From positions 1 to 64,000 of IMG/VR virus record IMGVR_UViG_3300033072_000728: a stretch of DNA of 64,000 nt. One strand, 5' to 3'. Under the pieces are notes generated by a model. It had not been told where the DNA came from, ran no database searches, and saw only the letters and a program-made list of their open reading frames with translations. Positions 11,244-32,479 of this stretch are shown in pieces. Positions within the stretch are counted from its first letter, which is position 1; every line of letters starts with the position of its first letter. The position numbers were made by a program, and so were the translations under genes. The stretch is from a virus (lineage: Duplodnaviria > Caudoviricetes).

Positions 11244-11246
11244 AGT

Positions 11247-11639: not shown

Positions 11640-11643
11640 GTTT

Positions 11644-12009
11644 CTAATATACCCTTACAATATCTGGATATTTGCATTGAAGTAGAAACCATTCTGAATC
11701 TGATTCTGCAAATACTAATTCAGGTTTTCCAGTTTTACGAATTAAGCCCTTCCATTCGGTTCCAACATCAGCAATGCTGAACTGGGGAGGGCAATAATCG
11801 TTACATTTAATCAAATAATCGATCAATGATTGTTGTTTTTGGTCTTTTATTTCAGATGATGTGAATGCGATTAAATTTCCATAGTAAGTTGAATAGAATG
11901 GAATAATCACGTTTTCTGGCATATCATGAATATCGGAAAACCATCTACATCGCGTAGTAATCCAGTTGTAGTTGTATGGTATCAAATCTGAAGGGTACAC
12001 GGAAATCAT
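11644..12009 (-). CDS. CKYP-motif family protein
   Basis: EWFLLQCKYPDIVRVY; ATGA overlap start at 12009. Confidence 0.85.
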   Translation of the reverse strand: MISVYPSDLIPYNYNWITTRCRWFSDIHDMPENVIIPFYSTYYGNLIAFTSSEIKDQKQQSLIDYLIKCNDYCPPQFSIADVGTEWKGLIRKTGKPELVFAESDSEWFLLQCKYPDIVRVY

Positions 12010-12587
12010 GATACCCACTTAATAACCACATCTTTCAACGTGGGATTGTGCCAGTTTTCAATCACTTTGAAAGCACGTTGGACGGTTCTTGCTTGGTTAA
12101 TAGCATCTTCCACTGCAACATGAGAAGTTTGATGATTATTATCAGTTAGTGATACTCCACACATTTCAAAAAGTGTTCGAGTGTCACGAACTTCCCAATA
12201 CTTCCAAGGAATTGAAATGCCAACTTGATCTAAGACGTTTTCAAGAATACCAATGTCAAACAGCGATCCATGTGCCCATGTTCGTTGGGGTGCATACTTA
12301 TTAAAGAACGCTACAAGCGATCGAAGTGCTTCGGGTAAGGGAACCCTGCCTTCATTGGTAAAAGCGCGCTCATAGGCCGTTTTAGACTGCTTGAGCCACC
12401 ATTCTAGGGTAGATGTGCTCTCCGTCCTAATCCACTTGAATGATTGATCGATTAAATCAGGGTTAACCGAGAATGTATCAATGATTGAATCATTATTTGG
12501 ATTGAAAATACAAGCACCAATACTTAGAATTTTCGATGTTGGTTTGGTATCGACTGTTTCTAAGTCGATCATGATATGATTAGTCAT
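12006..12587 (-). CDS. 3'-5' exoribonuclease/exonuclease, DEDDh family (Rv2179c-like)
   Basis: IMIDLET, WAHG..FD, PWKYW..RDTRT and H.AVEDA motifs. Confidence 0.88.
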   Translation of the reverse strand: MTNHIMIDLETVDTKPTSKILSIGACIFNPNNDSIIDTFSVNPDLIDQSFKWIRTESTSTLEWWLKQSKTAYERAFTNEGRVPLPEALRSLVAFFNKYAPQRTWAHGSLFDIGILENVLDQVGISIPWKYWEVRDTRTLFEMCGVSLTDNNHQTSHVAVEDAINQARTVQRAFKVIENWHNPTLKDVVIKWVS

Positions 12588-13099
12588 GTAATTATTTCAA
12601 ATTCAGGAAATGAGCATTTCAATATAAACACTACTGCTGGAAATTGTTCATTATCGAGGCTAGTTAAGGTTATGATGGAATACTGAAGGGATGAATAGGG
12701 CAGACTGTTGGTATTAGTGTTTAGCCACGTTGAAAGCTCTTCAGTGGGAAAATCGTTGGCATTGATAATGGTTGCAAATGGTGTTTCTGGAGTTTTTCCA
12801 AAATAGCATTCTTGTTCTTCCATGTCTTTTGAAAAACTTTGAAGTTCGGATAACAATAAACATTCTTTGGTATAAGAATGACTTTTGATGGTTAAACAAA
12901 CGGGTTGGTTTACCCCGAACTCAAAATTGTCAGATATTTCCCATGAATCGCCCAACTTATAAATGTGTCGGATTCGTGTTCCTATCTTTCGCAACACTCC
13001 GATTTTATTATGTTTATGGAAGATTTGAATCATTGAGGTTTTTGCAACGCCAAGAATAACGGCGCCGTTATTCTTTTGGTAACCCAAGCGGCATATCAC
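12584..13099 (-). CDS. CKYP-motif family protein
   Basis: VFILKCSFPE; true start may be 13033. Confidence 0.75.
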   Translation of the reverse strand: MICRLGYQKNNGAVILGVAKTSMIQIFHKHNKIGVLRKIGTRIRHIYKLGDSWEISDNFEFGVNQPVCLTIKSHSYTKECLLLSELQSFSKDMEEQECYFGKTPETPFATIINANDFPTEELSTWLNTNTNSLPYSSLQYSIITLTSLDNEQFPAVVFILKCSFPEFEIIT

Positions 13100-13541
13100 A
13101 AAATTTCGATTCTAATGCTTGCTTCATTCGTTCTAACTGAAATGGGGCAAATAAATCAGTATTGTTTTTCAAGAATAACGGCATGGTTCCCCATAATGAA
13201 TCATCCCCTATGTGAAAATCGAATGTTACTTTCGCGGCATACCTCAATGACGACTCATGGCTTTCATAAACCATGAAATTTGAATCGGATGGAGTTCTAA
13301 GTACAGAAAAACCATCGAGCAAAATATAGGAACTTTCGTATTCTGGAAACCCACGAATATATGAGTCAATTATATCAAGATGTTTGGTTTCAAATATCTG
13401 GTATCGTTTATGGAACTCAATTGAGCTGCCATCAAAAATAGGGTATATCTGATACCCGTCAAGAATCATTTGCCAAGAATAGCCACGAAATCCCAGATCG
13501 CATAATACATATGGAACGGAAGTGTCAAGAAGTTTAGTCAT
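13068..13541 (-). CDS. Hypothetical protein
   Basis: 157 aa ORF coupled to upstream gene. Confidence 0.75.
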   Translation of the reverse strand: MTKLLDTSVPYVLCDLGFRGYSWQMILDGYQIYPIFDGSSIEFHKRYQIFETKHLDIIDSYIRGFPEYESSYILLDGFSVLRTPSDSNFMVYESHESSLRYAAKVTFDFHIGDDSLWGTMPLFLKNNTDLFAPFQLERMKQALESKFCDMPLGLPKE

Positions 13542-14022
13542 ATGTAATTTCTAAATTTGGGTATTTGCATTTAATCAAAAATGCCTCGGATTGCCAATTT
13601 GTTTCTGAAAATGGGTTAAACTGGATAAAATTACCAACGATGTTAAATTTTAAATCATATTCCTCACATAATGCAATTGTTTGATCTCTTTCAGGCGATG
13701 GTGAATAAACAAAATTAGTTGAAAAGAAAGGCATTGGGTTATTGATGACAAAATCTTTTCGTTCTTCTAACGGGAATTGGTTTAACCACTTGCAAAGTTC
13801 GAGTTCTTTAAAATAAGAAGGATGTGCAATACATAAAACACGTTTACTTGAAGTTATATCAAGTGATCTTACTTCACCATTTCCGATGTATTCAAGTGAA
13901 AAACGATAATTCCACCCGTCGGGTTCAGGGTATTGTTTCTTTAACGCCCCTGATAAATTTGACAAAATAATAACATCTTTTTGTTGACGTGAGGTAGAGT
14001 GTTCTAGAGATATTTGAATCAT
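13534..14022 (-). CDS. CKYP-motif family protein
   Basis: AFLIKCKYPN. Confidence 0.8.
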   Translation of the reverse strand: MIQISLEHSTSRQQKDVIILSNLSGALKKQYPEPDGWNYRFSLEYIGNGEVRSLDITSSKRVLCIAHPSYFKELELCKWLNQFPLEERKDFVINNPMPFFSTNFVYSPSPERDQTIALCEEYDLKFNIVGNFIQFNPFSETNWQSEAFLIKCKYPNLEITYD

Positions 14023-14279
14023 TGTTTGATTTCCTTAAATGTCACTGTTGGGAACTTACATTTCAAAAGAAAAAACTCAGATTCAGAAAGTGCGGATAGG
14101 TTGATTTCTGCATGATAACATCCTTCAAACAATTCGGGAAACATCCAAATCGTACCGTATTGTCTCAGATCATCGATTAAGTGTCCTTCGGCAATGAAGA
14201 TTTCAATTTTATGAGAAGTATGAATGGCTGGGTGTTCTTCAACTGCCCGCATCAATTCACTGAAATTATAAGAATTCAT
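14019..14279 (-). CDS. CKYP-motif family protein
   Basis: EFFLLKCKFPT. Confidence 0.8.
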   Translation of the reverse strand: MNSYNFSELMRAVEEHPAIHTSHKIEIFIAEGHLIDDLRQYGTIWMFPELFEGCYHAEINLSALSESEFFLLKCKFPTVTFKEIKQ

Positions 14280-14689
14280 GGTTGAAAAAGGTTAGTTACT
14301 TTGAACAACGGGTTTGCACATTTAAACAAAAACTCGTCAGTATCGTTTCTAAATTTTACAAAGAATACCATTTCGGTGTTTCGCATATAATGAGTATCGA
14401 ATAGCTTCCATTTTTCAATAACAGCTTCAATATACTGACAACCAGCATTCCCATCAACTGAAACTTCATGGGTATAATCTAATACAGCAGTTATATTGCC
14501 GTTTGTAACATGATGTCTGAACCATTTATTAGATGCGGTTACAACAGTTACATAAGCACGATTGAATCGATTGCCATCAAACTGTATTGTTGTGGCGTAT
14601 CCCGATTTAATCCGATCACGCCAAATAAATCCAACATCGTTTACTTGAATTAGTTTAGTTTGCATTATGCGGAAGTTTATAAAGTTCAA
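14276..14689 (-). CDS. CKYP-motif family protein
   Basis: EFLFKCANP; start may be 14665. Confidence 0.75.
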   Translation of the reverse strand: MNFINFRIMQTKLIQVNDVGFIWRDRIKSGYATTIQFDGNRFNRAYVTVVTASNKWFRHHVTNGNITAVLDYTHEVSVDGNAGCQYIEAVIEKWKLFDTHYMRNTEMVFFVKFRNDTDEFLFKCANPLFKVTNLFQP

Positions 14690-15032
14690 TTGTTGGATAT
14701 TGGCAACGAAACAAAAATTCTTCTGGGTTAGGTGGTAAATTGATTAGCATATGAATCTCTGCTTCCATGCCTACCCAATAACATTCGATCAAAACCGCAT
14801 TCCATTTTTCCCGAAGAGAGTTGATCAATGTCTCATTTGAGAACATTAACGTATGGGTATATTGTTCTTCTTGATATAGGTGTTTGAATCGTTGGAACCA
14901 ATGATTGGTGGCCTTGACTACGGCATAAACCCGCCAATCTTTTCCCGAACCTGATTCACTGTCCCAAAGACGTTTTACGCCATGTCTAAACAAACAATGG
15001 GGTTTGTGGACTGAAATTAGTTTAGTTGGCAT
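14655..15032 (-). CDS. CKYP-motif family protein
   Basis: EFLFRCQYPT. Confidence 0.8.
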   Translation of the reverse strand: MPTKLISVHKPHCLFRHGVKRLWDSESGSGKDWRVYAVVKATNHWFQRFKHLYQEEQYTHTLMFSNETLINSLREKWNAVLIECYWVGMEAEIHMLINLPPNPEEFLFRCQYPTIELYKLPHNAN

Positions 15033-15062
15033 TTTATGTGGTCAGTAATGAAACAATAATGG

Positions 15063-15416
15063 TCAGCTCACGTTCTGGGGATAGGGAGTATGGTTCCATT
15101 TTGGGAATTTACAGTTAATAAGGAATTCTTGCTCAGGGGTATACCAAACCACAAACATTGGCCGTGAAAACCATCGTGGCGTTACCATGCTACGAATGAA
15201 TCGGATATTGTTATCAATCAGAAATTGCTGGAATGCTTTCTTTTCTTCTGGATCAATCCCAGAGGGTGAAGTCCAATATCCAGTAGGAATATCAGTAAAC
15301 CCATCTGGATAATCTTTCCCTAAAACAAACCAATTACCATCTTGAAGTTTACAACCTCCAATTGAGTTGGTAGCGAGTGCTTCTTCATGTGAACAAAATT
15401 TGTAAGTATATGTCAT
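15063..15416 (-). CDS. CKYP-motif family protein
   Basis: EFLINCKFPK. Confidence 0.8.
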   Translation of the reverse strand: MTYTYKFCSHEEALATNSIGGCKLQDGNWFVLGKDYPDGFTDIPTGYWTSPSGIDPEEKKAFQQFLIDNNIRFIRSMVTPRWFSRPMFVVWYTPEQEFLINCKFPKWNHTPYPQNVS

Positions 15417-15422
15417 GATAGA

Positions 15423-15605
15423 TTATTTCCAGGTATCTCGGATATGTTGAAGGTATTCTGGGTATTCAAGTGAGTTTGATAACAAGTCATCGGTGGATGG
15501 TTGTTGTGGTGGTTTGTAAGGTTTACATTTCCCAGAAAGAAAAAGTTTGCTTAAAAACTCTGATTCATCAGTGGTTAATTCTGATAGGGGGATTTCGACA
15601 ATCAT
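15423..15605 (-). CDS. Hypothetical protein
   Basis: 60 aa ORF filling gap in operon. Confidence 0.65.
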   Translation of the reverse strand: MIVEIPLSELTTDESEFLSKLFLSGKCKPYKPPQQPSTDDLLSNSLEYPEYLQHIRDTWK

Positions 15606-15617
15606 GATGGTTTAGTG

Positions 15618-15992
15618 TTAGATGGGCTCAATAGTCAGTTGTGGGTATAATTTGGTGAATAATGTTACCCGCTCATAATTTGCCAACGTGATGAGTGCTT
15701 TATTGACATTTGAACCAAACTCAGACTTGATTCGTTGTAAATTCCATTTACGTACTAACCCATCAGGAATGCCATTATCCGACCCAACGATGTGTGAAAA
15801 CTTTCTCCCAAGCATCAATTTAGACTTAACTCTGCTATTAACCCAACGGTTTGACGCATCAATTTTTGCAATTGCCAGATTTGAATTAGTGGGTTCGTTG
15901 AAAACTAACCATTTTCCCAAAACCTTTATTTTTTCGGTATGTTCAAACATGAAAAGAAAACTTGGTGTAGTAATGATAAAAGTAACTGGCAT
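15618..15992 (-). CDS. Hypothetical protein, degenerate CKYP-like end
   Basis: Ends LFTKLYPQLTIEPI; start 15992 (MPVTF) preferred. Confidence 0.7.
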   Translation of the reverse strand: MPVTFIITTPSFLFMFEHTEKIKVLGKWLVFNEPTNSNLAIAKIDASNRWVNSRVKSKLMLGRKFSHIVGSDNGIPDGLVRKWNLQRIKSEFGSNVNKALITLANYERVTLFTKLYPQLTIEPI

Positions 15993-15994
15993 TT

Positions 15995-16249
15995 TTAGTC
16001 TTTGATAATGTGGTTTAATGCTTCCACAATCGCCGCAGATTTTTGGTTGGCCCATTCTGCTTGCTCAAATGGCACCTGCGACGAAACGCGATGGTAATAT
16101 TCTGAAAAATCACTGACCAATGCCATCAATGATTGCTTCATTTTGGTATTTTCAGCTCTAAGTGCTTCTAGCTCATCTTGAGCATCTTGCGCCCAAGATT
16201 TCAGTACGTCAATATGCATTGTTGGTCGATAATTTTCAACTTGGTTCAT
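15995..16249 (-). CDS. Hypothetical coiled-coil protein
   Basis: 84 aa, heptad-like ELEALRAENTKMKQSL. Confidence 0.7.
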   Translation of the reverse strand: MNQVENYRPTMHIDVLKSWAQDAQDELEALRAENTKMKQSLMALVSDFSEYYHRVSSQVPFEQAEWANQKSAAIVEALNHIIKD

Positions 16250-21672: not shown

Positions 21673-22104
21673 TCAAATGATACAAGTTGAATTGCAAAAA
21701 GATGTAGTTTGAAATGCACTAATGGGTTCAAACATCGGAATAGGGTTATTCAGCATCTTATCAACTTTATCAAGTTCTTTGCGCTGCAAATCGACATTTA
21801 ATCGAATGTCTGATTCCGTAGTTTCTAAAACAGATTCTAACTTGTTGATCAATGGTAACATGCTATCAGTTACGTCTGGGTGATCTTTTAGTTTTTCAAA
21901 TGCAGCAGTTACGGAGTATAAAACGTCAGAATCTGGCACATATGAACGAACTTCGTCAAATGCTTTGAATAGGTCAGAATCGAAGTTCTCATAAAATTGA
22001 GAAGTTTCAATCAGTCTATCAATAACACATTCTGGAAGTGTACCGTGTCGTTTGAAGTATTCTTTAAACTGTTGAACACTATATGTTTCGTCAATATATT
22101 CCAT
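21673..22104 (-). CDS. Hypothetical protein, tandem paralogue of 22106..22522
   Basis: MEYIDETYSVQQFKEYFKRHG. Confidence 0.8.
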   Translation of the reverse strand: MEYIDETYSVQQFKEYFKRHGTLPECVIDRLIETSQFYENFDSDLFKAFDEVRSYVPDSDVLYSVTAAFEKLKDHPDVTDSMLPLINKLESVLETTESDIRLNVDLQRKELDKVDKMLNNPIPMFEPISAFQTTSFCNSTCII

Positions 22105-22105
22105 G

Positions 22106-22522
22106 TTATTGTTTAGTATTAAAGGGGTTAGAAGGTTCAAACACCTTGAATTGGTTGTCTAACATCCTAGACACTGCGTTTAGTTGTTCAAGCTGATATT
22201 CACCGTCTTGTCGAAATTGAGTTTCTAGATGATCCAAATCATCAATGGCACTATCAATAAGTGTAAGCGAAGTTTTGTCTTTTACCTTTGATGGGAATTC
22301 TGCTTTTGCTTCCAAAAGCAAATCTTTAACCTCTTGAAGAACATCTTCAGATTGTACACATGCTTTTGCTTCTTGAATGTTAGCCGATAGGGTTTCTTCT
22401 ACTTCTTCCAAGTATTCGTATTTTTCAATCAAAAATTCAATAACATGGGCTGGAAGTGAACCATGCCGATTGAAGTATTCTTTGAAACACTGTGCGCCAT
22501 AGGTTTGGTCAATGTATTCCAT
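22106..22522 (-). CDS. Hypothetical protein, tandem paralogue of 21673..22104
   Basis: MEYIDQTYGAQCFKEYFNRHG. Confidence 0.8.
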   Translation of the reverse strand: MEYIDQTYGAQCFKEYFNRHGSLPAHVIEFLIEKYEYLEEVEETLSANIQEAKACVQSEDVLQEVKDLLLEAKAEFPSKVKDKTSLTLIDSAIDDLDHLETQFRQDGEYQLEQLNAVSRMLDNQFKVFEPSNPFNTKQ

Positions 22523-22616: not shown

Positions 22617-23009
22617 CTAGAAAGAAGTGTCAATTGGTTGAATAACTCGGAATAGCATTTCCGAGGTAAATTCTTTGTAGTATTTCCAAGTATTAGGAAT
22701 CATTATAAAATGAAAAATTTGGTATTCTTTGGAAATGTTATAGGGTTCAATAAAAGGTTCAATATCTTCTATCCGATATAGGTCAGCTTCGTTCCACTGT
22801 TTTAACTGTGGGTTGCGTTCAATATCAGCAGAAGTTATATCTAATTCGGTTTTCCGTGTGGGTGGATTATCAGTCCATCTTACTTCTAACCCAGGGAAAC
22901 GGTTATTAAAATGCCCGAAAAGTTCTTGGATTTGGCAAATCGTCTTATTGTCATAAATTTCAAAAACAAATGGTCGAATAGCGTGGCGTATTAAAAATGT
23001 GAAGTTCAT
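22617..23009 (-). CDS. Hypothetical protein, paralogue of 23172..23570
   Basis: FIMIPNTWKYYKEFTSEMLFR. Confidence 0.8.
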   Translation of the reverse strand: MNFTFLIRHAIRPFVFEIYDNKTICQIQELFGHFNNRFPGLEVRWTDNPPTRKTELDITSADIERNPQLKQWNEADLYRIEDIEPFIEPYNISKEYQIFHFIMIPNTWKYYKEFTSEMLFRVIQPIDTSF

Positions 23010-23017: not shown

Positions 23018-23179
23018 TTAATGGTTAGCTATTGTGTTAGATTTTGTTTGTTCAAGATCATATTCTGAGCAAATACCGTTCCATCCACGTTTTCCAACAT
23101 ACAGACTGTTAGTGTTCCAGACACACCATTCAATAAACACAGTCTGAACTAATAGACATTTGAATAAAGGTTTAATCAC
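23018..23179 (-). CDS. MIKP-family small protein
   Basis: GTG ATT AAA CCT start at 23179. Confidence 0.65.
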   Translation of the reverse strand: MIKPLFKCLLVQTVFIEWCVWNTNSLYVGKRGWNGICSEYDLEQTKSNTIANH

Positions 23180-23570
23180 ATGGATATTCCCGTCGAACAC
23201 ATCGGAACAACATTTCCGAAGTAAATGCTTCATAATGTTCCCAAGATGGCGGAATTATAACAAACTGAAAGAATTGGTGTTTCGACAGGTCTACTTCATA
23301 AATGAAAGCATGATGTTTGATGGTGTTTACCAAATAAACATCAGACAAGAAATGATCTTGATTGGATTCATCGTATGGGCAATACCAAACGAACTTGTCG
23401 TTACCCTTATCATATTGCTGGATGACTTGAACCCCTTTGAAAAATTGTCCGAATCTCTGAAGTCGGAATTCTAAATCAATCTTGCCTTTAATTTGTTGCT
23501 TACGTCTATTGAATGGCTTGTTAATAAGTTCATCCATTATAAACTGTGGTGCGTTATAATATTGTTTCAT
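23172..23570 (-). CDS. Hypothetical protein, paralogue of 22617..23009
   Basis: FVIIPPSWEHYEAFTSEMLFR. Confidence 0.8.
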   Translation of the reverse strand: MKQYYNAPQFIMDELINKPFNRRKQQIKGKIDLEFRLQRFGQFFKGVQVIQQYDKGNDKFVWYCPYDESNQDHFLSDVYLVNTIKHHAFIYEVDLSKHQFFQFVIIPPSWEHYEAFTSEMLFRCVRREYPCD

Positions 23571-23704
23571 TTATAAGCCATTCATCTAGTTTCATTTCCC
23601 TCATTTACTGAAAAGTTTCAACATATTCCCATTCAGCATAATAAAGATACGTCACACCGAGGTGAACAACCGATTTCATTAAAGTTAATATTGGGTTTAA
23701 TCAT
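23567..23704 (-). pseudogene. MIKP-family pseudogene
   Basis: MIKPNI start, stop after 23 codons; another frame carries ...LDEWLIK* with ATGA overlap. Confidence 0.5.
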
Positions 23705-23870
23705 ACTATTTGGTCGTGTAACCAATTCCTAAAAGTGCAAAATCAATGCATTTAGATGATGTGGAATAATAGATCAGACAGGTTCGCCATCCTTCTATTT
23801 TTCTAAATGCACTCATATCGCGTTCATTTGCATTTTCAAGTCGAATGTTATTCAAGTGTGGTTTAATCAT
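23701..23870 (-). pseudogene. MIKP-family gene with probable frameshift at a T4 run
   Basis: MIKPHL...ALLGIGYTTK*; adding one T restores ...LFRNWLHDQIV* with ATGA overlap. Confidence 0.5.
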
Positions 23871-23871
23871 T

Positions 23872-24045
23872 TTATCCCCCTATTTCATCTCCAAGCATTT
23901 CAGATAACCATAGTTGTGATAAATCAAATCTGATTCTCACATCACTAAACAACAAACACGAAAATCCACCGATGGTTCTAAATTGAACGTGTTCGTGATC
24001 CACGAGATTAGTATGCTCAATAAATCGAAGTTTTTCCTTAATCAT
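23872..24045 (-). CDS. MIKP-family small protein (57 aa)
   Basis: MIKEKLRF...WLSEML. Confidence 0.7.
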   Translation of the reverse strand: MIKEKLRFIEHTNLVDHEHVQFRTIGGFSCLLFSDVRIRFDLSQLWLSEMLGDEIGG

Positions 24046-24175
24046 GTGGCTTTCCTATTTCATCCATTAACCAAATTGAAATAACCGTGTTGTAAACAAT
24101 ATCAAAAGGATGAAACCATACATCAGTATGACCGAATCCACAAAGCTGAATGTGAGTTATTATAGGTTTAATCAT
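24038..24175 (-). CDS. MIKP-family small protein (45 aa)
   Basis: MIKPIITH...IWLMDEI. Confidence 0.7.
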   Translation of the reverse strand: MIKPIITHIQLCGFGHTDVWFHPFDIVYNTVISIWLMDEIGKPHD

Positions 24176-24350
24176 TTGTTAATATAACTTCCAACCATTT
24201 TTCAATCTCTAGTAGTTCAATATCATGAACACTTTCCACGAAAAGCAGCCATGTTGAATCAAAAGCAATAAATCCACGCTTATTCCACCATTCAATATCA
24301 AAATCATCAGTCGATTCGACGTAGAACAGCTTAATTACAGGTTTAATCAT
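24168..24350 (-). CDS. MIKP-family small protein
   Basis: MIKPVIKL...KWLEVILTND. Confidence 0.75.
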   Translation of the reverse strand: MIKPVIKLFYVESTDDFDIEWWNKRGFIAFDSTWLLFVESVHDIELLEIEKWLEVILTND

Positions 24351-24572
24351 TTCACTTGATCTTTCAACCATTTTGTCGAATTATCGTCAAGATCAGTTCG
24401 ATATAACCTGGCAAGTGAAATATATTCCCAGGGAGGAGTTTTGTGCCATTTCTTATCCCGACCCACAAAATAATAAGTGTATTTTCTGTCATTCCTGGAA
24501 ATTTGAATTTGGTCAAAACCAGAAAGATTACACATTACACATATCGATATATCTGATAACGGGTTTAATCAC
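24347..24572 (-). CDS. MIKP-family small protein
   Basis: GTG ATT AAA CCC start at 24572; ends KWLKDQVK. Confidence 0.75.
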
Positions 24573-25393
24573 AATCCAAGTTCCTCAAAGGTTTGTTTAA
24601 TTTCAGCCACACGCTCTGGATACCGTTTGAATATCACTTGCCATTGGACGGGTTGAATAACATCAATCAAAGTGTCAACCAAATCATCATTCAATTGATA
24701 CAGAAATGTTTGACCCATATTGCTCTGATACAACAACCAAGGTGAGATTCTACCGTTTCTGATATTCATGCAAATTCTATTAGGACTGACATTTGAAAGA
24801 ACTTGATCCAGTGGTTGCTTGTACTCTGTCCCAAGTGAATCCAAAGTTTCAATACTTCGATGAATGGCATCAAATGGGTCTTCTTTCTTTAGAAACTCTG
24901 TTAAAAACTTTTGGTAGTTTTCATCCAATGACCAATCACCGATTTTCACTTTGTTGTCAAGTAACCATTCCATATACATCATAGTGTTAATTACTGAAGT
25001 ATTGATACAGTAGTTTGCAAACTTGACAAAAGCTAGAAACGAACTTGTGCCCATAAAATCTTTATAAGTGGTTTTTGTATTACTTGGCCAATGTAGTTTC
25101 ATAAATTGTTGCCACGCCATAAAGGCTGTTCGGTATTCTAACTTATCACGATCCATCCATCGTTGTTTTTTCACACACAAATGATTCATCCATGTGGTTT
25201 CGCGCTTAAACGACATCCCACAATGTTCGCACTTGAATTCAACTTCTGGTTCAGAAACGATAGGGCTAGGAGCCTCTAGAACGGCCTTGGTTCGTTTTTT
25301 TCTGGGTGGCGTAGGTGTAGCATCATCCTTTAGATTTTTTGGCTCCTTTGGTGGCCTTCCGCGCTTTGGTTTGATCTGGGACTGTGATTCCAT
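24569..25393 (-). CDS. Conserved zinc-finger-containing protein
   Basis: FKCEHCG...NHLC C2H2-like finger; basic N-terminus with AT-hook-like KRGRPPK. Confidence 0.8.
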   Translation of the reverse strand: MESQSQIKPKRGRPPKEPKNLKDDATPTPPRKKRTKAVLEAPSPIVSEPEVEFKCEHCGMSFKRETTWMNHLCVKKQRWMDRDKLEYRTAFMAWQQFMKLHWPSNTKTTYKDFMGTSSFLAFVKFANYCINTSVINTMMYMEWLLDNKVKIGDWSLDENYQKFLTEFLKKEDPFDAIHRSIETLDSLGTEYKQPLDQVLSNVSPNRICMNIRNGRISPWLLYQSNMGQTFLYQLNDDLVDTLIDVIQPVQWQVIFKRYPERVAEIKQTFEELGL

Positions 25394-25955
25394 GTGCTTC
25401 CTTCAATTGCTCAAGTTGTTCAGTGGTTAGAATTTTTGACATGGCTTTAATGTCACTTAACTTCATTGTATCAAACATTAATGCTAAATCACATTGGTTA
25501 TTTTGAGCCTTAACATACTGTTCAACATCATTGGTAAAATCTGGCACTTTTTTTGCATACTCGGTTGCTTCTTTGTTAGAGATTTTTTCATCCATTTGGA
25601 TGAACTTTTTACTAAGTTGTGGCAACCATTTGTGGTTGTATTTCTGTGAAGTGCCAGTTCCAGATGCACACATGAGCTGCCAAGTTAATTCAGGATGGTC
25701 TTTAAGTTGTTCATCAAACAGATATTTGTTTGCATAGTGGTTGGTTGCAATCACCGCATATTCTGTTAAATGTGGTTTTTTCGGTGAATTGATTGACGCC
25801 ATCCACTGAGCAAACATGAATGGGACAAACTTCTTTTGTTCTTCTGGGGTGAATTGATTTAAAAAATCATATTGTTTGGTATCTGCTGCATTCAATGCTT
25901 CAAATAAATCAAAAGATTTTTCGTTGGTAGTTTCGTCAGTTTGGGTGGTTGTCAT
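25323..25955 (-). CDS. Clamp loader small subunit (T4 gp62-like)
   Basis: FDLF..LNA, F.PFM..QW.S and HPEL.WQL.C..G.G....HKW pattern; start 25955 by ATGA overlap. Confidence 0.7.
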   Translation of the reverse strand: MTTTQTDETTNEKSFDLFEALNAADTKQYDFLNQFTPEEQKKFVPFMFAQWMASINSPKKPHLTEYAVIATNHYANKYLFDEQLKDHPELTWQLMCASGTGTSQKYNHKWLPQLSKKFIQMDEKISNKEATEYAKKVPDFTNDVEQYVKAQNNQCDLALMFDTMKLSDIKAMSKILTTEQLEQLKEAHGITVPDQTKARKATKGAKKSKG

Positions 25956-26062
25956 GCTGATAATTTTGATATTGAGTAGGATAAGAATTCTGACATAAAT
26001 GGATGTCGCGTGCAATAACCTTGATGGTTTATCTTGATACTAGTGATCTTGGATTTAATCAT
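25952..26062 (-). CDS. MIKP-family small protein (36 aa)
   Basis: MIKSKITS; ATGA overlap. Confidence 0.6.
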   Translation of the reverse strand: MIKSKITSIKINHQGYCTRHPFMSEFLSYSISKLSA

Positions 26063-26208
26063 GAAATTTGGTTTTCAATACCATTGAGAAGTTGCTGTTT
26101 AAACACATCATATCTGATCGTTTTGGCATAAAAACTCAGCCGACCCAATGACAGTGATGTACCGTTTTCATATAGTAATTTTACTAGAACTATTTTAGGT
26201 TTAACCAC
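26059..26208 (-). CDS. MIKP-family small protein (49 aa)
   Basis: GTG GTT AAA CCT; ATGA overlap. Confidence 0.65.
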   Translation of the reverse strand: MVKPKIVLVKLLYENGTSLSLGRLSFYAKTIRYDVFKQQLLNGIENQIS

Positions 26209-26329
26209 TAATTTCTTTCTTTATCAGAGATAGATAAGTTTCTGGAATCTCAGTATTAAGATGTCGATGCGAAATAATCCATTTGTGTTTACTCCCAAAC
26301 ATAACAAATTTAATAAGCGGTTTAATCAT
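26201..26329 (-). CDS. MIKP-family small protein (42 aa)
   Basis: MIKPLIKF. Confidence 0.65.
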   Translation of the reverse strand: MIKPLIKFVMFGSKHKWIISHRHLNTEIPETYLSLIKKEISG

Positions 26330-26438
26330 GACAATAAGTTTTCCAATTGTTGTCCAAACACGGGTGAAAATAAAAGAACGCAGACCCAGGGGTTCCATTA
26401 ACGATGAAATTCAATCTGTCAATATTGGATTTGGTCAT
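26322..26438 (-). CDS. MIKP-family-like small protein (38 aa)
   Basis: MTKSNIDRL...YCHD*. Confidence 0.5.
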   Translation of the reverse strand: MTKSNIDRLNFIVNGTPGSAFFYFHPCLDNNWKTYCHD

Positions 26439-26550
26439 CGAGTAGCTTTGTCAATAATCTTGTTGTATAGGTGCTGCCATAAGGGTCAAATAACCTTCGC
26501 AAATTTCTACATTCTGAAACAGTTATAAACTCAATTGTAGGTTTAATCAT
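26419..26550 (-). CDS. MIKP-family small protein (43 aa)
   Basis: MIKPTIEF. Confidence 0.6.
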   Translation of the reverse strand: MIKPTIEFITVSECRNLRRLFDPYGSTYTTRLLTKLLDDQIQY

Positions 26551-26570
26551 TATGAGAACCATAGAAATAC

Positions 26571-26613
26571 AAATAGCCACACCCTAACAAAAATTAAAGG
26601 GTGTGGCTATTTT
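26571..26613 (-). terminator. Rho-independent terminator
   Basis: 15-bp inverted repeat AAATAGCCACACCCT/AGGGTGTGGCTATTT. Confidence 0.8.
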
Positions 26614-26629
26614 TGGTTATTACATCAGA

Positions 26630-26947
26630 TTAACCTTCGGAAGATGTTTGTTCAGGTTTGGGCATACGTTCTTTGATTTCAGTTAGTAGTTCGTCAACGG
26701 TGTCATAAACTTTGAATCCACCTGAATTAAATGAAATGTGCATAAACTCATCAGGATCGGCAACATTGACAGGATAAACGTATTCTTGTGTTCCGCCTTC
26801 GCATTCAAACACAAGATGTTTGGTTTCGGCATACTTTTCAATCTTGTTTTGACACCAAACCCAACGCTTTACGGGTGTAGGAGCTTGTCCAGACCTAAAA
26901 GTTAGATCGGTAGTTTGTGGGAATTCAGTGATGTTTACAGAAGTCAT
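26630..26947 (-). CDS. Hypothetical protein
   Basis: 105 aa ORF. Confidence 0.75.
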   Translation of the reverse strand: MTSVNITEFPQTTDLTFRSGQAPTPVKRWVWCQNKIEKYAETKHLVFECEGGTQEYVYPVNVADPDEFMHISFNSGGFKVYDTVDELLTEIKERMPKPEQTSSEG

Positions 26948-26984
26948 GTTACGAAAAAGTGTGTAAGTTGTTGAGAAGGTTTGA

Positions 26985-27233
26985 TTATGCCGTAGTTGTG
27001 TTTGTGTGGGTTAATAGTGAAGCAGAATGGTTGGGATTGAATGCCGTGACATCGGGGATACGGTTGGTTTCGTCGTTTGGGTCTTTTCGGTATCTGATTT
27101 CAAGATGATGCTCCCCTGTATCAAGTAACGTCTGAATACCTTTGGAAATATCTTGAATGTTAGTAATGAAAATATAGTTTGTTGGAATACCTAAACGGTG
27201 GATCAAAACTCGTTTAATAATGGATGGTTTCAT
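26985..27233 (-). CDS. MIKP-family-like protein
   Basis: MKPSIIK; ATGA overlap. Confidence 0.65.
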   Translation of the reverse strand: MKPSIIKRVLIHRLGIPTNYIFITNIQDISKGIQTLLDTGEHHLEIRYRKDPNDETNRIPDVTAFNPNHSASLLTHTNTTTA

Positions 27234-27397
27234 GGTAGAGTTGTTTGGTCAATATGGTCTTTCAATTTAAAAATAATGTCAAGGGATTGAACTTGAAGTT
27301 CGATTAACAATAGTAATAATTCTGGCGTAACAAGACATCGTTCAAAATTTTCAATAGGTTTAGTAACGCGAATGATGGTTACAATCGGTTTAATCAT
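27230..27397 (-). CDS. MIKP-family small protein (55 aa)
   Basis: MIKPIVTI. Confidence 0.7.
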   Translation of the reverse strand: MIKPIVTIIRVTKPIENFERCLVTPELLLLLIELQVQSLDIIFKLKDHIDQTTLP

Positions 27398-27578
27398 CTT
27401 CACTTATTACATAACATAAAATACTTATAACGTTTTCCATTTTGGAATAAGGGAAAGATTGGGATTTGCTATGAATATACGTCCACAAATAAACATCAAT
27501 ACAGGTTGTCCCATAATATACGTTAAAATCCGATCTAAAGTTTTTGGTTTTAAATGATGTTAGTGTAGGTTTATTCAA
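27390..27578 (-). CDS. MIKP-family small protein
   Basis: TTG AAT AAA CCT start at 27578. Confidence 0.65.
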   Translation of the reverse strand: MNKPTLTSFKTKNFRSDFNVYYGTTCIDVYLWTYIHSKSQSFPYSKMENVISILCYVISEDD

Positions 27579-27813
27579 TTCTATTCTTCCCAAATTGTAA
27601 TTCAAATATCTTATTTAAATGATAATCCAGTTTATCACGTTCATACGCTGAAATAGTTGCTTTATATGAAGTTTTTTGTTCCATTTCGGGTGAAAGTTTT
27701 ATCGTATTTGACCAACCCATTGCAATTAACGGAATTCCACGATAATGTTGTGTGGCATGTCTAATTACAAACCCACGTTCACAACTAATTTTACGGATGA
27801 TGGGTTTATTCAT
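27571..27813 (-). CDS. MIKP-family small protein
   Basis: MNKPIIRK. Confidence 0.75.
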   Translation of the reverse strand: MNKPIIRKISCERGFVIRHATQHYRGIPLIAMGWSNTIKLSPEMEQKTSYKATISAYERDKLDYHLNKIFELQFGKNRIE

Positions 27814-27991
27814 TTTGGAGTTGTTTCACTATCTGTTTGTAAGTTTCTTGATTTATACGGGTTGACAGTTCATTCCAATGTTTCCAATATAAACCGCTAA
27901 TAAACAATTCAAATGGTAGAGGACATAGTTCAAATTCTAATGAACGTTGGGAATTGACAAAATGCGGATATGTTATTTGAGGTTTAATCAT
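27806..27991 (-). CDS. MIKP-family small protein
   Basis: MIKPQITY start at 27991 within ORF-track frame. Confidence 0.7.
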   Translation of the reverse strand: MIKPQITYPHFVNSQRSLEFELCPLPFELFISGLYWKHWNELSTRINQETYKQIVKQLQNE

Positions 27992-28214
27992 AAAATTTAG
28001 AAATGAAATGTGCTCCAAACATTTTGCGTAAGGAAGAAACGATTCTTGCATCGTCAGATAATGTAATTTCTTTCCAGAAGAAATTATTATGAAATTCATT
28101 GGTTGGTAGTCGGATAGTACATAAAGGAACACCATCGTGGTGATTTGGCGCATACATTACAACTAGGTATTGAAGCGGGTTGTGTAATACCTTTACAATT
28201 TTTGGTTTAATCAT
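27984..28214 (-). CDS. MIKP-family small protein
   Basis: MIKPKIVK. Confidence 0.75.
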   Translation of the reverse strand: MIKPKIVKVLHNPLQYLVVMYAPNHHDGVPLCTIRLPTNEFHNNFFWKEITLSDDARIVSSLRKMFGAHFISKFYD

Positions 28215-28328
28215 TGGTTAAAAACTCCATTAAACGGTTCTGCAATCTTTCAGTAAAAGCTGGAATGCCATACTTGTCTGATTTTGCCAACCAGAATAAC
28301 GATGTTTTAGAATAAGTGGTTTAATCGT
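28207..28328 (-). pseudogene. MIKP-family pseudogene (ACG start, frameshift at A4 run)
   Basis: ACG ATT AAA CCA CTT ATT; adding one A gives ...RLMEFLTND*. Confidence 0.55.
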
Positions 28329-28364
28329 ATTTGCAAGAATTTTAACACATATTCTGGGAACGGT

Positions 28365-28511
28365 TTAGAGCGAGCAACATTTATGATCGGGGGGTTTCAC
28401 CAGACCACCATGATTTAAATAACGGATTCTAACCCCATCCCAAAATAATTCAAAATGAGTACAAACTCCAATATCCAGCCACAACATTGTTAGTATTTTT
28501 GGTTTGACCAT
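28365..28511 (-). CDS. MIKP-family small protein (possibly frameshifted at C6 run)
   Basis: MVKPKIL; 48 aa. Confidence 0.5.
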   Translation of the reverse strand: MVKPKILTMLWLDIGVCTHFELFWDGVRIRYLNHGGLVKPPDHKCCSL

Positions 28512-28600
28512 GTTCGTAATTTTTCAAAATCTTGAAAGATGATTTCACAAGTAGCCGATTTCCATTTACACCCGATATAATTTATTTTGGATTTAATCAT
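28490..28600 (-). CDS. MIKP-family small protein (36 aa)
   Basis: MIKSKINY. Confidence 0.6.
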   Translation of the reverse strand: MIKSKINYIGCKWKSATCEIIFQDFEKLRTWSNQKY

Positions 28601-28820
28601 TATTAAATTCCAACTCAAAAAATGGGACACATTCATCGAAATTGTCAAACAATTGTTGCCCAACATCTTCAATTCCATTTGTTAAATTTACATAAACTGC
28701 AACTTCGTATTTCCAGTTATTAACGTCATCCAATACTTGACTTATAGTTGTTATGTAATAAGAAGAATCGGATTTTCTCGATGAAACCGTATTGCACCAA
28801 TCTATTTTGGGTTTAATCAT
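28593..28820 (-). CDS. MIKP-family small protein
   Basis: MIKPKIDW. Confidence 0.75.
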   Translation of the reverse strand: MIKPKIDWCNTVSSRKSDSSYYITTISQVLDDVNNWKYEVAVYVNLTNGIEDVGQQLFDNFDECVPFFELEFNND

Positions 28821-28822
28821 TT

Positions 28823-28987
28823 CTATTTCCTTGAGATTAATTTGTTAAGCCAGTTTCTGATCTGAGTATTATATCTCTGATTTATGAACCGAACAAAATG
28901 AATAGGATATAACACCCGATCATACATATCAGCATCCGAATCTGTTATATCGACAAATCTTACAGTTTTAAGTTTGGGTTTAATCAT
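28823..28987 (-). CDS. MIKP-family small protein (54 aa)
   Basis: MIKPKLKT...NWLNKL. Confidence 0.7.
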   Translation of the reverse strand: MIKPKLKTVRFVDITDSDADMYDRVLYPIHFVRFINQRYNTQIRNWLNKLISRK

Positions 28988-29127
28988 GATAACTCTTGAA
29001 TACGTCTTTTAACGCGGTTGGTAAAACTCGATGGATAATACTCATCCCCATTTGCTGGACTAATTGATCTATCTTTCAGAGATCGACAACACATGACACG
29101 AACATCTAGGATTCTAGGTTTAATCAT
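28984..29127 (-). CDS. MIKP-family small protein (47 aa)
   Basis: MIKPRILD; ATGA overlap. Confidence 0.7.
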   Translation of the reverse strand: MIKPRILDVRVMCCRSLKDRSISPANGDEYYPSSFTNRVKRRIQELS

Positions 29128-29287
29128 TTTTCAACAAAACTTCCCAATGGTTTTTCATCCAATTCAACATCCCAGCATAAACAACAAACTGGGATGCATA
29201 ATTGCACCTTGGACTTGATGGGGTAGATTGAAAAGTATGTTTTTGGAAACCATTAAACACGCCAGTTTTAATCGAATCCTTAATCAT
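29120..29287 (-). CDS. MIKP-family small protein (55 aa)
   Basis: MIKDSIK...LKND*. Confidence 0.65.
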   Translation of the reverse strand: MIKDSIKTGVFNGFQKHTFQSTPSSPRCNYASQFVVYAGMLNWMKNHWEVLLKND

Positions 29288-29289
29288 TT

Positions 29290-29436
29290 AATATCTTTCT
29301 CAAAATTTCTCAAATATCGTTCCACCACGTTCAACCATTTTGATTCTTGTTCTGGGGTTCGATAATAAGAATCATATTCAACTGAATTGTTTTCATCATC
29401 GAAACATTTTACCTATTTAAACATAGGTTTTATCAT
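29290..29436 (-). pseudogene. MIKP-family pseudogene (TAG at codon 8 plus frameshift)
   Basis: MIKPMFK*VKCF...; another frame carries SKWLNVV. Confidence 0.55.
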
Positions 29437-29615
29437 AGTTCATTTAACCAGATCGTAATATCGTTAACATGATCCGAATATGATTCAACATTCCACCAGC
29501 CAGTGACTGGGTTTGGTACTTCTACCATCAATACACCTCTTTGGTTGAAAATGCGCCACGGATATAACCCCAGTGGTTCTGAAAAATCTACCCAGTGAAT
29601 TTTACGTTTAATCAT
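29433..29615 (-). CDS. MIKP-family small protein
   Basis: MIKRKIHWVDF...WLNEL. Confidence 0.75.
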   Translation of the reverse strand: MIKRKIHWVDFSEPLGLYPWRIFNQRGVLMVEVPNPVTGWWNVESYSDHVNDITIWLNEL

Positions 29616-29830
29616 TCTGAATAGTCTTGATCAAAAATTCTACAACCTCGTTACAATCAAAAACTGAACCAACTCTGATGGATTGTGAGAAACTATGGTC
29701 TTGATTCCATTTTCTAAATGTTAATGTCATATTGTTGAGAAATGTGGTTAAAATTATATTCTCCGATCAGTAAACGGACAAACTCATTATCTGGATTTAA
29801 TGTAAACCAGTTAATTGCGGGGTTAATCAT
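29608..29830 (-). pseudogene. MIKP-family gene with frameshift
   Basis: MINPAINW stops after 38 codons; shifted frame continues to ...EFLIKTIQND* with the usual overlap. Confidence 0.55.
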
Positions 29831-30066
29831 GTTACCCCGCCATTCAAACGTGTTTCTAATTTGCTGTAATAATTATCAAGGGTTTTCATAAGACCACGAT
29901 GTTTAAATAAACTTATTCCCCTTACCGTATTCTGGTGATATTGATCGACTGCTTCAAGCATCATTGAACAATGGCGTTTCCCTTTAATATATTCAAACAA
30001 CTTTCCAAGTTTGAATACAATATCACCATCACAAAAATATACTGCATTGATGTTGGGTTTAATCAT
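29827..30066 (-). CDS. MIKP-family small protein
   Basis: MIKPNINA. Confidence 0.75.
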   Translation of the reverse strand: MIKPNINAVYFCDGDIVFKLGKLFEYIKGKRHCSMMLEAVDQYHQNTVRGISLFKHRGLMKTLDNYYSKLETRLNGGVT

Positions 30067-30290
30067 TGTTTTAATCTATTAACTAACCAATACATTAGTT
30101 CTGGCTCATATAATTCATATTCGTTGTCATTAACGTTGTTATTCATATATGTCCGAACAAACATCCGAACGGTGGGTGGCCAAACTAATTCATCAGGATC
30201 ATATCCCAAAAATATACAAAAATTAAAGTCGTTATTAACAACCGTGCCATTAACCCCTACATACACATAAATTAGATTAGTTTTTATCAT
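30063..30290 (-). CDS. MIKP-family small protein
   Basis: MIKTNLIY...YWLVNRL. Confidence 0.75.
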   Translation of the reverse strand: MIKTNLIYVYVGVNGTVVNNDFNFCIFLGYDPDELVWPPTVRMFVRTYMNNNVNDNEYELYEPELMYWLVNRLKQ

Positions 30291-30490
30291 GACACTTTAT
30301 CAGTTAACCATTGAACCAATTCTGATTCAAAATCGGCATATATTTTCTTTTCGCGATTTCCGTTATTATTGAATTTCATAATGGTTAGTACGCATGGATA
30401 ATACTCCATAAAAATTCCAAAATCGAGAACAAAAACGCCTAGTTCATCTAGTTTGCCCATTTTTACGTAAATTAGTAGTGGTTTAACCAT
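30287..30490 (-). CDS. MIKP-family small protein
   Basis: MVKPLLIY...QWLTDKV. Confidence 0.75.
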   Translation of the reverse strand: MVKPLLIYVKMGKLDELGVFVLDFGIFMEYYPCVLTIMKFNNNGNREKKIYADFESELVQWLTDKVS

Positions 30491-30678
30491 TCAATAATCC
30501 TTTGTTTTTCACGTTCATAAGCATAGGTCAGCCACCTTGAACTATGCCCTAATTCAACCATTAGTTTGAAATCATATTCCATACCAGATCAAAGGATTTT
30601 TATACAAGATGGGAACCTAGTTGGAAACCATAACGGAGAATCAATTAAGTTGACTTCACGTAATTTTGGTTTAATCAT
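30470..30678 (-). pseudogene. MIKP-family pseudogene
   Basis: MIKPKLRE stops after 35 codons; another frame carries ...IIEWLNHY*. Confidence 0.55.
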
Positions 30679-30883
30679 AAGTTAGATACTTTCTTAATTC
30701 ATTACATTCCATCATATCTCCATTGTATTTTCCTTGCTGAATTCCACCTAGTTCATTGATGACTAGAACTAACCGTACATATCTAAAATGCTTTGTTTGT
30801 TTATCATAATGGTGTTGTTTAGATAATTGATAATAAGTTTCTGATTTTCTAAAGTTTAGAAGTTCGATGATGGGTTTTCTCAT
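30671..30883 (-). CDS. MIKP-family small protein
   Basis: MRKPIIEL. Confidence 0.75.
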   Translation of the reverse strand: MRKPIIELLNFRKSETYYQLSKQHHYDKQTKHFRYVRLVLVINELGGIQQGKYNGDMMECNELRKYLTYD

Positions 30884-31086
30884 AACTCATTTAACCATTG
30901 GTTTATTTCCTGAGTATGATTCTCAAACGGTTCATAAGTCCAATAATCGTTGGTTGGTGAATTAAACTCCAACAAAAGTTGTTGGTCATCATAATTTAAA
31001 AATATCCTGTATGCTAGTAGAGTACATCCTTTCCATATTCGATCTGGCTCTATGAAATCCACCCAATGAATCGATGATTTTTTCAT
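30880..31086 (-). CDS. MIKP-family small protein
   Basis: MKKSSIHWVDF...QWLNEL. Confidence 0.75.
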   Translation of the reverse strand: MKKSSIHWVDFIEPDRIWKGCTLLAYRIFLNYDDQQLLLEFNSPTNDYWTYEPFENHTQEINQWLNEL

Positions 31087-31322
31087 AGTTCATTCAGCCA
31101 GTTTTTGACATCAGGTTTATTAAAGAATTGATCTAGTGAATTAAAGTATTCGGGATCACGGGTATTATCACGATACCAGTGAAATGCACCGCCAGCCCAC
31201 CACACTTGTTTGTAAGAATCAAACACTAAATCATCATTTTGGATTCTATACCCCTTTGACAATGAAAACATATTGTCAAAAACCGTGTAGAACTCAACAC
31301 CGTGGAATAACGGTTTAATCAT
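31083..31322 (-). CDS. MIKP-family small protein
   Basis: MIKPLFHG...NWLNEL. Confidence 0.75.
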   Translation of the reverse strand: MIKPLFHGVEFYTVFDNMFSLSKGYRIQNDDLVFDSYKQVWWAGGAFHWYRDNTRDPEYFNSLDQFFNKPDVKNWLNEL

Positions 31323-31546
31323 AGGAGTTCTCGGGAAATAAACTCAAACATATTAACTGATTCATTCAATGTTTGATACAACATATGAGTTTCGGTCTGT
31401 TCCCCATTCAAAAACCGAACTTCTTTATACGAATCCGAAACCATTTCCCCATTCACGAACGTGGTTCCTGTATAACCCACACTCAATGATATAAATTCTT
31501 CGTCGTTTAGATAGAATAACAGTTGTTCAATGTGTGGTTTAATCAT
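31319..31546 (-). CDS. MIKP-family small protein
   Basis: MIKPHIEQ. Confidence 0.75.
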   Translation of the reverse strand: MIKPHIEQLLFYLNDEEFISLSVGYTGTTFVNGEMVSDSYKEVRFLNGEQTETHMLYQTLNESVNMFEFISRELL

Positions 31547-31764
31547 ATAGATAATCCTGTTTTAATATATTGAATAATTTGAAACGTATCATCAATATCA
31601 AGTGAATCTATTTGAGATAGTTGATATGTTGCTGTAAAAACTTTTTCAGAGTAATGATTCCATTTCATCTTTCTTGGGTTATCCATGAGCTTAAATGACG
31701 ATGACAAACTTATAGAGGTTTGGGTAGTGTACAACTTAATTCTTCGCAGTTTTGGTTTAATCAT
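31543..31764 (-). CDS. MIKP-family small protein
   Basis: MIKPKLRR. Confidence 0.75.
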   Translation of the reverse strand: MIKPKLRRIKLYTTQTSISLSSSFKLMDNPRKMKWNHYSEKVFTATYQLSQIDSLDIDDTFQIIQYIKTGLSI

Positions 31765-31963
31765 TAAGAAACTCCATTATCTGGCTTAACTCTTTCAAAT
31801 CATTGCATTCAAAAACTTGCCCTTCTGATTTTGCAAAATCCCATACTTTAAGTATAAAAATAGGCTCAAGTAACGGGTTATTAAACTGATTTCGGAAGTG
31901 TGATAGCTGGTAAAACTCGGTTTCAGTTTTCCATTTTACATATTTGATAACAAGTTTAATCAT
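31757..31963 (-). CDS. MIKP-family small protein
   Basis: MIKLVIKY...MEFLND. Confidence 0.75.
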   Translation of the reverse strand: MIKLVIKYVKWKTETEFYQLSHFRNQFNNPLLEPIFILKVWDFAKSEGQVFECNDLKELSQIMEFLND

Positions 31964-32151
31964 ATTTCAGTCAACCATTTGAATAAGAAATTCTCAAAAT
32001 CTTTATATAATACCGAGCACCATCCACGATCATCAGATAGTTCGACCGAAAAATTATAATCCCAAAAAACTCTATAATAGGTGCCCATTATCCCACTACC
32101 ATCCGTCGTAGTGTCCTTAAAATCTGCAAATTTTATAACGGGTTTAATCAT
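31960..32151 (-). CDS. MIKP-family small protein
   Basis: MIKPVIKF...KWLTEI. Confidence 0.75.
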   Translation of the reverse strand: MIKPVIKFADFKDTTTDGSGIMGTYYRVFWDYNFSVELSDDRGWCSVLYKDFENFLFKWLTEI

Positions 32152-32323
32152 TATTAAGGCTTTTCACGATAGTTTTACGGTGAGAGGAAAGTTCTCGTAG
32201 TTTTCAGACGATGCGCTGGATCAATTCTAGGTCAGTGTTAGCAAACAATGTCGAAGTGTATTGTTCCCATAATTAGTCGAGTTGTTCATTTAATGATTGC
32301 AACTCTGCTTTAGATTGGGTCAT
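32144..32323 (-). pseudogene. First gene of MIKP operon, two in-frame stops (TAA 32273, TGA 32204)
   Basis: MTQSKAELQSLNEQLD*LWEQ...QRIV*KLRE...SLNND*; frame ends in the standard ATGATTAA overlap. Confidence 0.65.
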
Positions 32324-32360: not shown

Positions 32361-32389
32361 ATTATACGTGACTTCGACTACTTAGTAAA
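32361..32389 (-). promoter_or_regulatory. Sigma70-type promoter heading the MIKP operon
   Basis: TTTACT-17 nt-TATAAT just downstream of a terminator. Confidence 0.65.
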
Positions 32390-32422
32390 ATAGTCAACTA
32401 TTTTCAGGTGGTGACAAACGAC

Positions 32423-32464
32423 AAAAATGCCTCTACACTGTTTTTCAAGTGTAGAGGCATTTTT
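32423..32464 (-). terminator. Rho-independent terminator
   Basis: 16-bp inverted repeat AAAAATGCCTCTACAC/GTGTAGAGGCATTTTT. Confidence 0.85.
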
Positions 32465-32479
32465 AGTTGTTCAGTTTGA

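Follow-up and report, generated by a model that had tools for sequence, protein, structure and literature searches.

How can a phage carry several dozen tiny, adjoining genes with largely different products, and what keeps such a chain expressed when its content changes from strain to strain? This question is raised by a region on the minus strand of the Caudoviricetes record IMGVR_UViG_3300033072_000728, a 72,553-nucleotide (nt) viral contig (~21% complete) of which bases 1–64,000 form the window. An earlier note, made from the sequence of the window alone, had described about 39 head-to-tail genes of ~36–82 amino acids (aa) between positions 23018 and 32323, nearly all beginning with the residues MIKP. 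Number and size both hold: 39 motif-bearing starts run from 32151 to 23179, preceded by a non-motif leader gene at 32323, and the intact open reading frames (ORFs) encode 36–82 aa in a narrow distribution (median 64 aa). With a probability of about 0.6, we consider this array to be a birth-and-death library of accessory small proteins, confined to its lineage and reshaped by short-homology recombination, in a RaK2/GAP32-like jumbo phage. By its core genes, the contig represents an uncultured branch of that group. The 274-aa gene within the array and the primase match fHe-Yen9, SCTP-2, Atu_ph07, PA5oct and CBB at merely 28–31% identity, the closest that cultured phages come on core genes, and no similar DNA was found among isolated phages.

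The key to the array is the joint between consecutive units. Units begin with ATGATTAA(ACC), in which the start codon lies in frame 0, a TGA follows one base in and a TAA five bases in, i.e. a start codon is combined with one stop in each of the other frames. An upstream gene read in either of these frames therefore ends within the word, at an overlap of −4 or −8 nt; the next start thus receives the end of every upstream gene whose length is not a multiple of three. The extended 11-mer ATGATTAAACC occurs in 18 exact copies, all within the array. The rest of the 72.5-kb contig has none on either strand, and with one mismatch allowed, 29 copies lie inside versus 4 outside. The overlap of starts with the preceding stop that the earlier note had pointed out is confirmed, with 12 of the 36 measurable junctions in the window overlapping by −4 (ATGA) and 12 by −8 (ATGATTAA). 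Over 172 units from nine contigs the two overlaps are used 51:51, in contrast to the remaining contig genes, where −4 is far commoner (13:3). Joint variants tend to retain whichever stop the upstream gene uses, and loss of that stop lets the gene read on for a few codons (28600, 26550). Unit 26438 shows a one-base gap relative to its orthologue in the related contig L098, yet it too terminates at the following joint, only in the alternative frame. The use of a non-standard genetic code was rejected, as TGA and TAA function as stops at every joint, the core genes are open, and orthologues carry ordinary codons at the broken sites.

Coupling of ATGA-type overlaps by termination-reinitiation has been shown in 13 of 14 tested pairs (Huber et al. 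2019, PMC6728339). The array resembles these pairs in its ATGA-type overlaps and in having few clear ribosome-binding sites, with a GGAG-like core at just 8 of 39 junctions, but its motif serves both out-of-frame phases with equal use. By the same established biology, the overlaps would couple each unit to its neighbour without a ribosome-binding site per gene.

A comparison of order and content between relatives revealed how the chain changes. Three relatives (L094, L095 and L098) cover the full locus, with flanking and core proteins mostly 77–96% identical, and six contigs cover it in part; L096 is more distant. The four full genomes carry 69 unit types at 21–41 units per genome, with 3 types present in all four and 29 private to one. 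The set is hence not fixed, though it is colinear: there is no discordant pair of shared units among the four genomes and a single swap with a fifth contig, L196. Private units are dispersed along the array rather than leader-proximal, tandem duplicates occur in L095, L094 and L193, and in L193–L195 the leader is joined directly to the orthologue of unit 31322. Adjacency differs by whole units in 15 cases, ~12 of them clean in that the left donor is matched up to the joint and the right donor beyond it, and at these clean junctions the longest stretch of perfect identity shared by the two donor joints is 5–19 nt. Only three mid-gene deletions were observed, which formed chimeras with no more than 3 nt of shared sequence. 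As broken units are tolerated (about one fifth per genome), this bias is unlikely to be due wholly to selection against chimeras. In addition, four units of L192 match L098 at 99.5–100% identity, beyond which identity drops to ~80% and a unit absent from L098 appears, which indicates that strains also exchange blocks by ordinary homologous recombination.

The proposal that the junction serves both as translational coupler and as recombination handle is thus borne out by the stops in both frames, their balanced use, and whole-unit gain and loss with crossovers inside the joint. The accompanying picture of a cassette library survives for this turnover, but not in full, as order is colinear, units are not added at one end, and part of the array is an ordinary paralogue expansion. 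Mechanistically, the phage's own T4-type recombination, acting on 4–19 nt of shared sequence, could delete, duplicate and replace units with no dedicated recombinase, and each such rearrangement would leave a coupled chain. In T4, accessory genes are deleted or amplified via 6–10 bp microhomology, and the genes lost were anti-defence genes (10.1101/2022.04.14.488369). Given this precedent, the array pattern is explicable without a dedicated enzyme. Among the closest known parallels is PeSL shuffling in the hyperplastic regions of the T4-type phages RB49 and phi1, where ORFans are swapped at short repeats by homologous recombination and expression is preserved (Arbiol et al. 2010, PMC2839356). 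As with PeSL or Botstein-Campbell linkers, a short repeat is the site at which small ORFans come, go and are substituted, and gain, loss and replacement in the array map to its repeat (15 whole-unit differences versus 3 internal deletions). Unlike PeSL, the array repeat is only 8–11 nt long, lies inside the coding sequence and forms a translational joint, with no promoter or stem-loop at the unit borders and no intergenic DNA. The locus thereby offers a mapped case of turnover in a jumbo-phage ORFan region. Since one eight-base word provides the start codon, a stop in both other frames and the crossover site, rearrangement would seldom break expression, and the joint may be of use as a simple element for coupled synthetic operons.

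The patterns of substitution make it clear that the units behave as proteins under relaxed purifying selection. The ratio of nonsynonymous to synonymous substitution (dN/dS, simple method) is 0.39 over 43 orthologous unit pairs (bootstrap 0.34–0.46), compared with mostly 0.05–0.2 for core genes, and substitutions at the three codon positions amount to 12, 10 and 19% in frame-blind alignments (p = 6e-18). At the same time, the window has 7 broken units out of 39 and a broken leader, the lesions being stops, frameshifts or an ACG start; ~20% of units are broken in each genome, and some breaks are common to several genomes. Assembly error was rejected as the cause, as L098 carries the identical stop in unit 30678. 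Tandem duplication, loss and pseudogenes under purifying selection, as expected of a paralogous expansion, are all seen in the array, and small-domain expansions are known from other jumbo phages, such as the ~35 zinc ribbons of Bacillus phage G (Iyer et al. 2021, PMC7824862). Like these, the array comprises dozens of small diverged paralogues in one lineage, but it differs in being tandem, chained by the dual-frame stop/start joint, and subject to strain-level turnover that maps to this joint.

The earlier statement that the genes share only a start motif has to be revised, since nearly all share a protein-level residue pattern up to position 11, probably an N-terminal strand, and some bodies align. 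Hydrophobic residues occupy positions 6, 9 and 11 in 61, 55 and 48 of 62 unit types, respectively (background 41%), and are encoded by varied synonymous codons. Body alignments link 31086 with 29615 (Z 14) and 31546 with 31322 (Z 9.7), and a subfamily ending in W-L-x-x-L is alignable over its whole length and clearly paralogous. The W-L-x-x-L/I and N-D-stop endings pointed out before do exist, but W-L terminates merely 15 of 62 types. A possible origin of the W-L-N ending by duplication of the joint found little support and was dropped, as these endings differ from the 11-mer by 2–7 mismatches and carry TTA in 6 of 15 cases; the ending may help recombination at some junctions. Structure prediction, one of the checks suggested in the earlier note, succeeded for the 31086 subfamily: modelled from the paralogue alignment, unit 31086 adopts four strands plus a C-terminal helix with a predicted local distance difference test (pLDDT) score of 80, compared with 45 from the single sequence, and the head residues, i.e. 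the N-terminal residues common to the units, sit in the first strand. The order of secondary elements in this four-strand-plus-helix model is that of PUR, PC4 and Whirly, but identities of 3–12% and background-level scores denote a common small arrangement that implies no function (best match: Z 4.2, root-mean-square deviation 5.3, 61 residues aligned, Foldseek E 0.78; none with Z ≥5). Fold searches with the same model gave background-level matches only, with PUR repeats on top, which does not by itself prove the fold novel.

A common fold for many units is likely. Many or most of them would derive from a single small domain, rich in strands and closed by a C-terminal helix, with the first strand and last helix as scaffold and the middle hairpins free to vary. 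With net charges from −8 to +9, an aromatic-rich composition and a hydrophobic 19-mer in 1 of 62 types, the proteins are predicted to be soluble. The profile search suggested for phages at large brought lineage-only matches: among 1.84 billion representatives, no unit homologue was found outside the lineage (12 own-lineage matches plus one spurious). The spurious match, P0132 of 219 aa, was discarded as an unrelated bacterial repeat protein, and the lone PDB sequence match had no passing stretch. In the literature searched, no mention of the MIKP family was found, and the family as well as the dual-frame joint seem undescribed.

As to function, the unit proteins could be dispensable, host-strain-specific binders that act early in infection against defence or housekeeping targets. 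This is the weakest step of the proposed mechanism, and we would put it at about an even chance, as we would the anti-defence or host-takeover role suggested in the earlier note, which by analogy seems the most likely function; the early timing is likewise surmised. In practical terms, at least 76 types of small, probably soluble, selected but presumably dispensable proteins without database relatives would provide a compact set for host-interaction screening.

Several points weigh against a one-domain library built on this joint. When the N-terminus was masked, just 7 of 62 types scored above all shuffles in a leave-one-out comparison with a profile of the remaining types, and for most types no homology was detected past the head. 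The model of a second subfamily was poor (pLDDT 53) and also contains an internal helix, so that a single fold may not hold for all types. Pfam, PHROG, PADLOC, PDB sequence and Atlas searches returned no functional match and nothing common to the members. The pairs used for dN/dS and for the event counts are non-independent, and a selection filter could partly underlie the junction bias. Finally, the same slot in L096 holds tiny genes that mostly have an MKP start without the double stop, which shows that an array of this kind can do without the joint. This L096 array (4518–8511) has starts of the form ATGAAACC and its own recent triplicates; the double-stop joint may be derived, or may have been lost in L096.

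The alternative that fares best is that the units are heterogeneous cargo, in which unrelated captured genes received the first 10–13 codons of a resident unit by recombination and the head is uninformative on fold. Heads can indeed move between units by recombination. Homology blocks often end 20–40 nt into the next unit; unit 30678 and its L095 counterpart have head and tail in common but differ in the middle; 32151 and L095:956 are alike mainly over the first 55 nt; a 295-aa non-member in L095 and L098 has a joint-like start; and profile–profile matches between subfamilies disappear once five residues are trimmed. Yet no donor pool is seen, as the search for homologues outside the lineage came back empty, while the narrow length distribution and the conservation of positions 6, 9 and 11 as residues rather than codons also speak against this alternative. 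We regard grafted heads as unlikely for the array as a whole, though worth keeping in mind. Somewhat more doubtful is a reading in which the first 11 residues form a shared docking or targeting strand, the array is a plug-in library of anti-defence binders, the minimal ATGATTAA joint allows immediate expression of whatever payload arrives, and this joint has arisen convergently in an unrelated soil phage with another protein family. If true, phage accessory arrays would follow a convergent design principle of general reach, and dozens of new defence inhibitors could be drawn directly from them.

A related possibility, which appears improbable, is that the 11 N-terminal residues direct the protein to the prohead or to one phage or host partner, as a targeting peptide, with the variable bodies packaged or delivered as defence inhibitors in the manner of the T4 internal proteins. 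The prohead-protease cleavage consensus is I/L/V-x-E. Such a site occurs within the first 14 residues in just 6 of 62 types, the TATAAATA late-type promoter was not found in the array, and the 31086 model builds the head into the first strand of the fold. In the T-even ip loci (IPI, IPII, IPIII and variants), small genes form hypervariable clusters (PMC3012670; Repoila et al. 1994 as cited there), and anti-defence roles are proven for IPI and IPIII. They share with the array a conserved N-terminal peptide, diverse small bodies and hypervariability between strains, but the array has no sequence similarity to them, no evident protease site after the head and far more units per genome; the ip products are packaged in the phage head and injected. 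Just as improbable is that the array is mostly neutral filler, an old decaying expansion kept to fill the phage head and to hand ribosomes to downstream core genes. The share of broken units, some with shared breaks, the presence of merely three universal types and the coupling of part of the array to two core genes would fit, but dN/dS and the third-position bias, recent duplicates and intact strain-private units do not, and the first and largest block ends before a terminator and leads into no core gene.

That a site-specific recombinase acts on the motif, as in an integron, is very improbable: crossovers do map to the motif, with as little as 4–5 nt of perfect identity, but the motif is non-palindromic, tolerates many substitutions and has no flanking non-coding site, nothing akin to attC (palindromic site, non-coding DNA or hairpin) lies between units, cassette entry at the promoter end and shuffling of order are contradicted by the dispersed private units and retained order, and no PF00589 match indicative of an IntI-type tyrosine recombinase was found on the ~21% complete contig. 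In its working the array resembles PeSL cassettes, and in its layout the T-even ip loci, but it departs in defining features from both and from integrons.

Returning to the birth-and-death library, its physical layout is less uniform than the single coupled operon of the earlier note, as a terminator-like hairpin and four non-member genes break the run into blocks of 27, 5, 6 and 1 units. All features lie on the minus strand, and ordinary units overlap without intergenic spacer. Upstream, a strong terminator-like hairpin (32422–32465, z −7.7, found in three relatives) ends a 127-aa gene. It is followed by the putative promoter TTTACT-17-TATAAT at 32361–32389, preceded by an A-tract and a conserved TTGACT. 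The −10 box is the same in L094 and L098 and has one change in L095, and this conservation together with the place behind a strong hairpin makes the promoter plausible; its 10/12 match, however, is of a quality found at chance frequency, with 51 promoter-grade matches in the region against 50.8 expected. The leader gene (32144–32323) has two in-frame stops in the window, is intact at 65 aa in L094 and L098, and terminates in the first joint with a −8 overlap.

Block 1 (26985–32151) comprises 27 units with starts at 32151, 31963, 31764, 31546, 31322, 31086, 30883, 30678 (stop), 30490, 30290, 30066, 29830 (frameshift), 29615, 29436 (stop, chimera), 29287, 29127, 28987, 28820, 28600, 28511 (frameshift), 28328 (ACG start, frameshift), 28214, 27991, 27813, 27578, 27397 and 27233. 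It is separated from block 2 by a 105-aa gene (26630–26947; kept in all relatives, dN/dS 0.04–0.17) and an internal terminator-like hairpin of 15 bp (26571–26612, z −5.8, kept in three relatives). The two hairpins are the only strong ones in 11 kb, and neither lies between ordinary units. The loops of both are inverted in L098 (3357–3399 and 7217–7258), as micro-inversions between the hairpin arms. Block 2 (25952–26550) consists of units 26550, 26438, 26329, 26208 and 26062, the last of which overlaps the start of the 210-aa conserved core gene (25323–25955, phrog_11758) by 4 nt. This gene and the 274-aa conserved core gene (24569–25393, phrog_11058), which has RaK2/GAP32-like homologues, a weak C2H2-like zinc finger in its product and an end in a joint, separate blocks 2 and 3. 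Block 3 (23555–24572) has six units: 24572 (frameshift due to a short duplication), 24350, 24175, 24045, 23870 and 23704 (frameshift). A 132-aa gene (23172–23570) follows, ending in a joint (−8); L095 and L098 have a 295–306-aa gene instead. Block 4 is the final 53-aa unit (23018–23179) with a GTG start, which belongs to the three types common to all four genomes. The 295–306-aa gene of the block 3–4 zone has no family and a joint-like start; it is located at L095:10278–11165, L098:9772–10692 and L096:12860–13747 and is absent from the window. Two further paralogue pairs lie beside the array, with 22617–23009 and 23172–23570 encoding 130 and 132 aa with a common C-terminal motif and a second pair (138 and 143 aa) within 21673–22522; L093 carries a deletion between the 130-aa and 132-aa members.

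Other arrays of small genes were also encountered. In one soil metagenome, an apparently unrelated AT-rich phage (L081, L006, L015, L019, L077, L079) carries MIKP-started minigenes with 20 overlaps of −4 and 16 of −8 and a different internal motif, Y-Y-x-P-L-x-x-L; homology to the array units was not found past residue 5. This suggests convergence on the same joint, with the bias that the search was aimed at this very word. Behind the same core gene, a further family of ~30 tiny genes, ending in F-x-L-R-W, fills the slot in a 364-kb jumbo phage (L111:10662–19056), and the window itself contains a second array (7284–16055) of 110–170-aa genes with the C-terminal end F-L-L-x-C-K-Y-P, three of which start with ATGATTAAA. 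These last two families are connected by a weak profile match (E 0.007), and past residue 5 neither shows homology to the array units. Scans of IMG/VR with the 274-aa gene, a DUF2828 gene and three motif patterns gave chance matches only and no close relative. A promoter-like element ending in TGATGCATAATAGATTCATCGG occurs in three copies on the minus strand (32930, 41659 and 42949) ahead of small genes and is a candidate strong early promoter of the phage. Lastly, a DnaB-like helicase encoded at 2656–4434 of the window is 592 aa long compared with ~470 in relatives and, judged from its sequence, contains a mini-intein-like insert with Cys and His-Asn at its boundaries.

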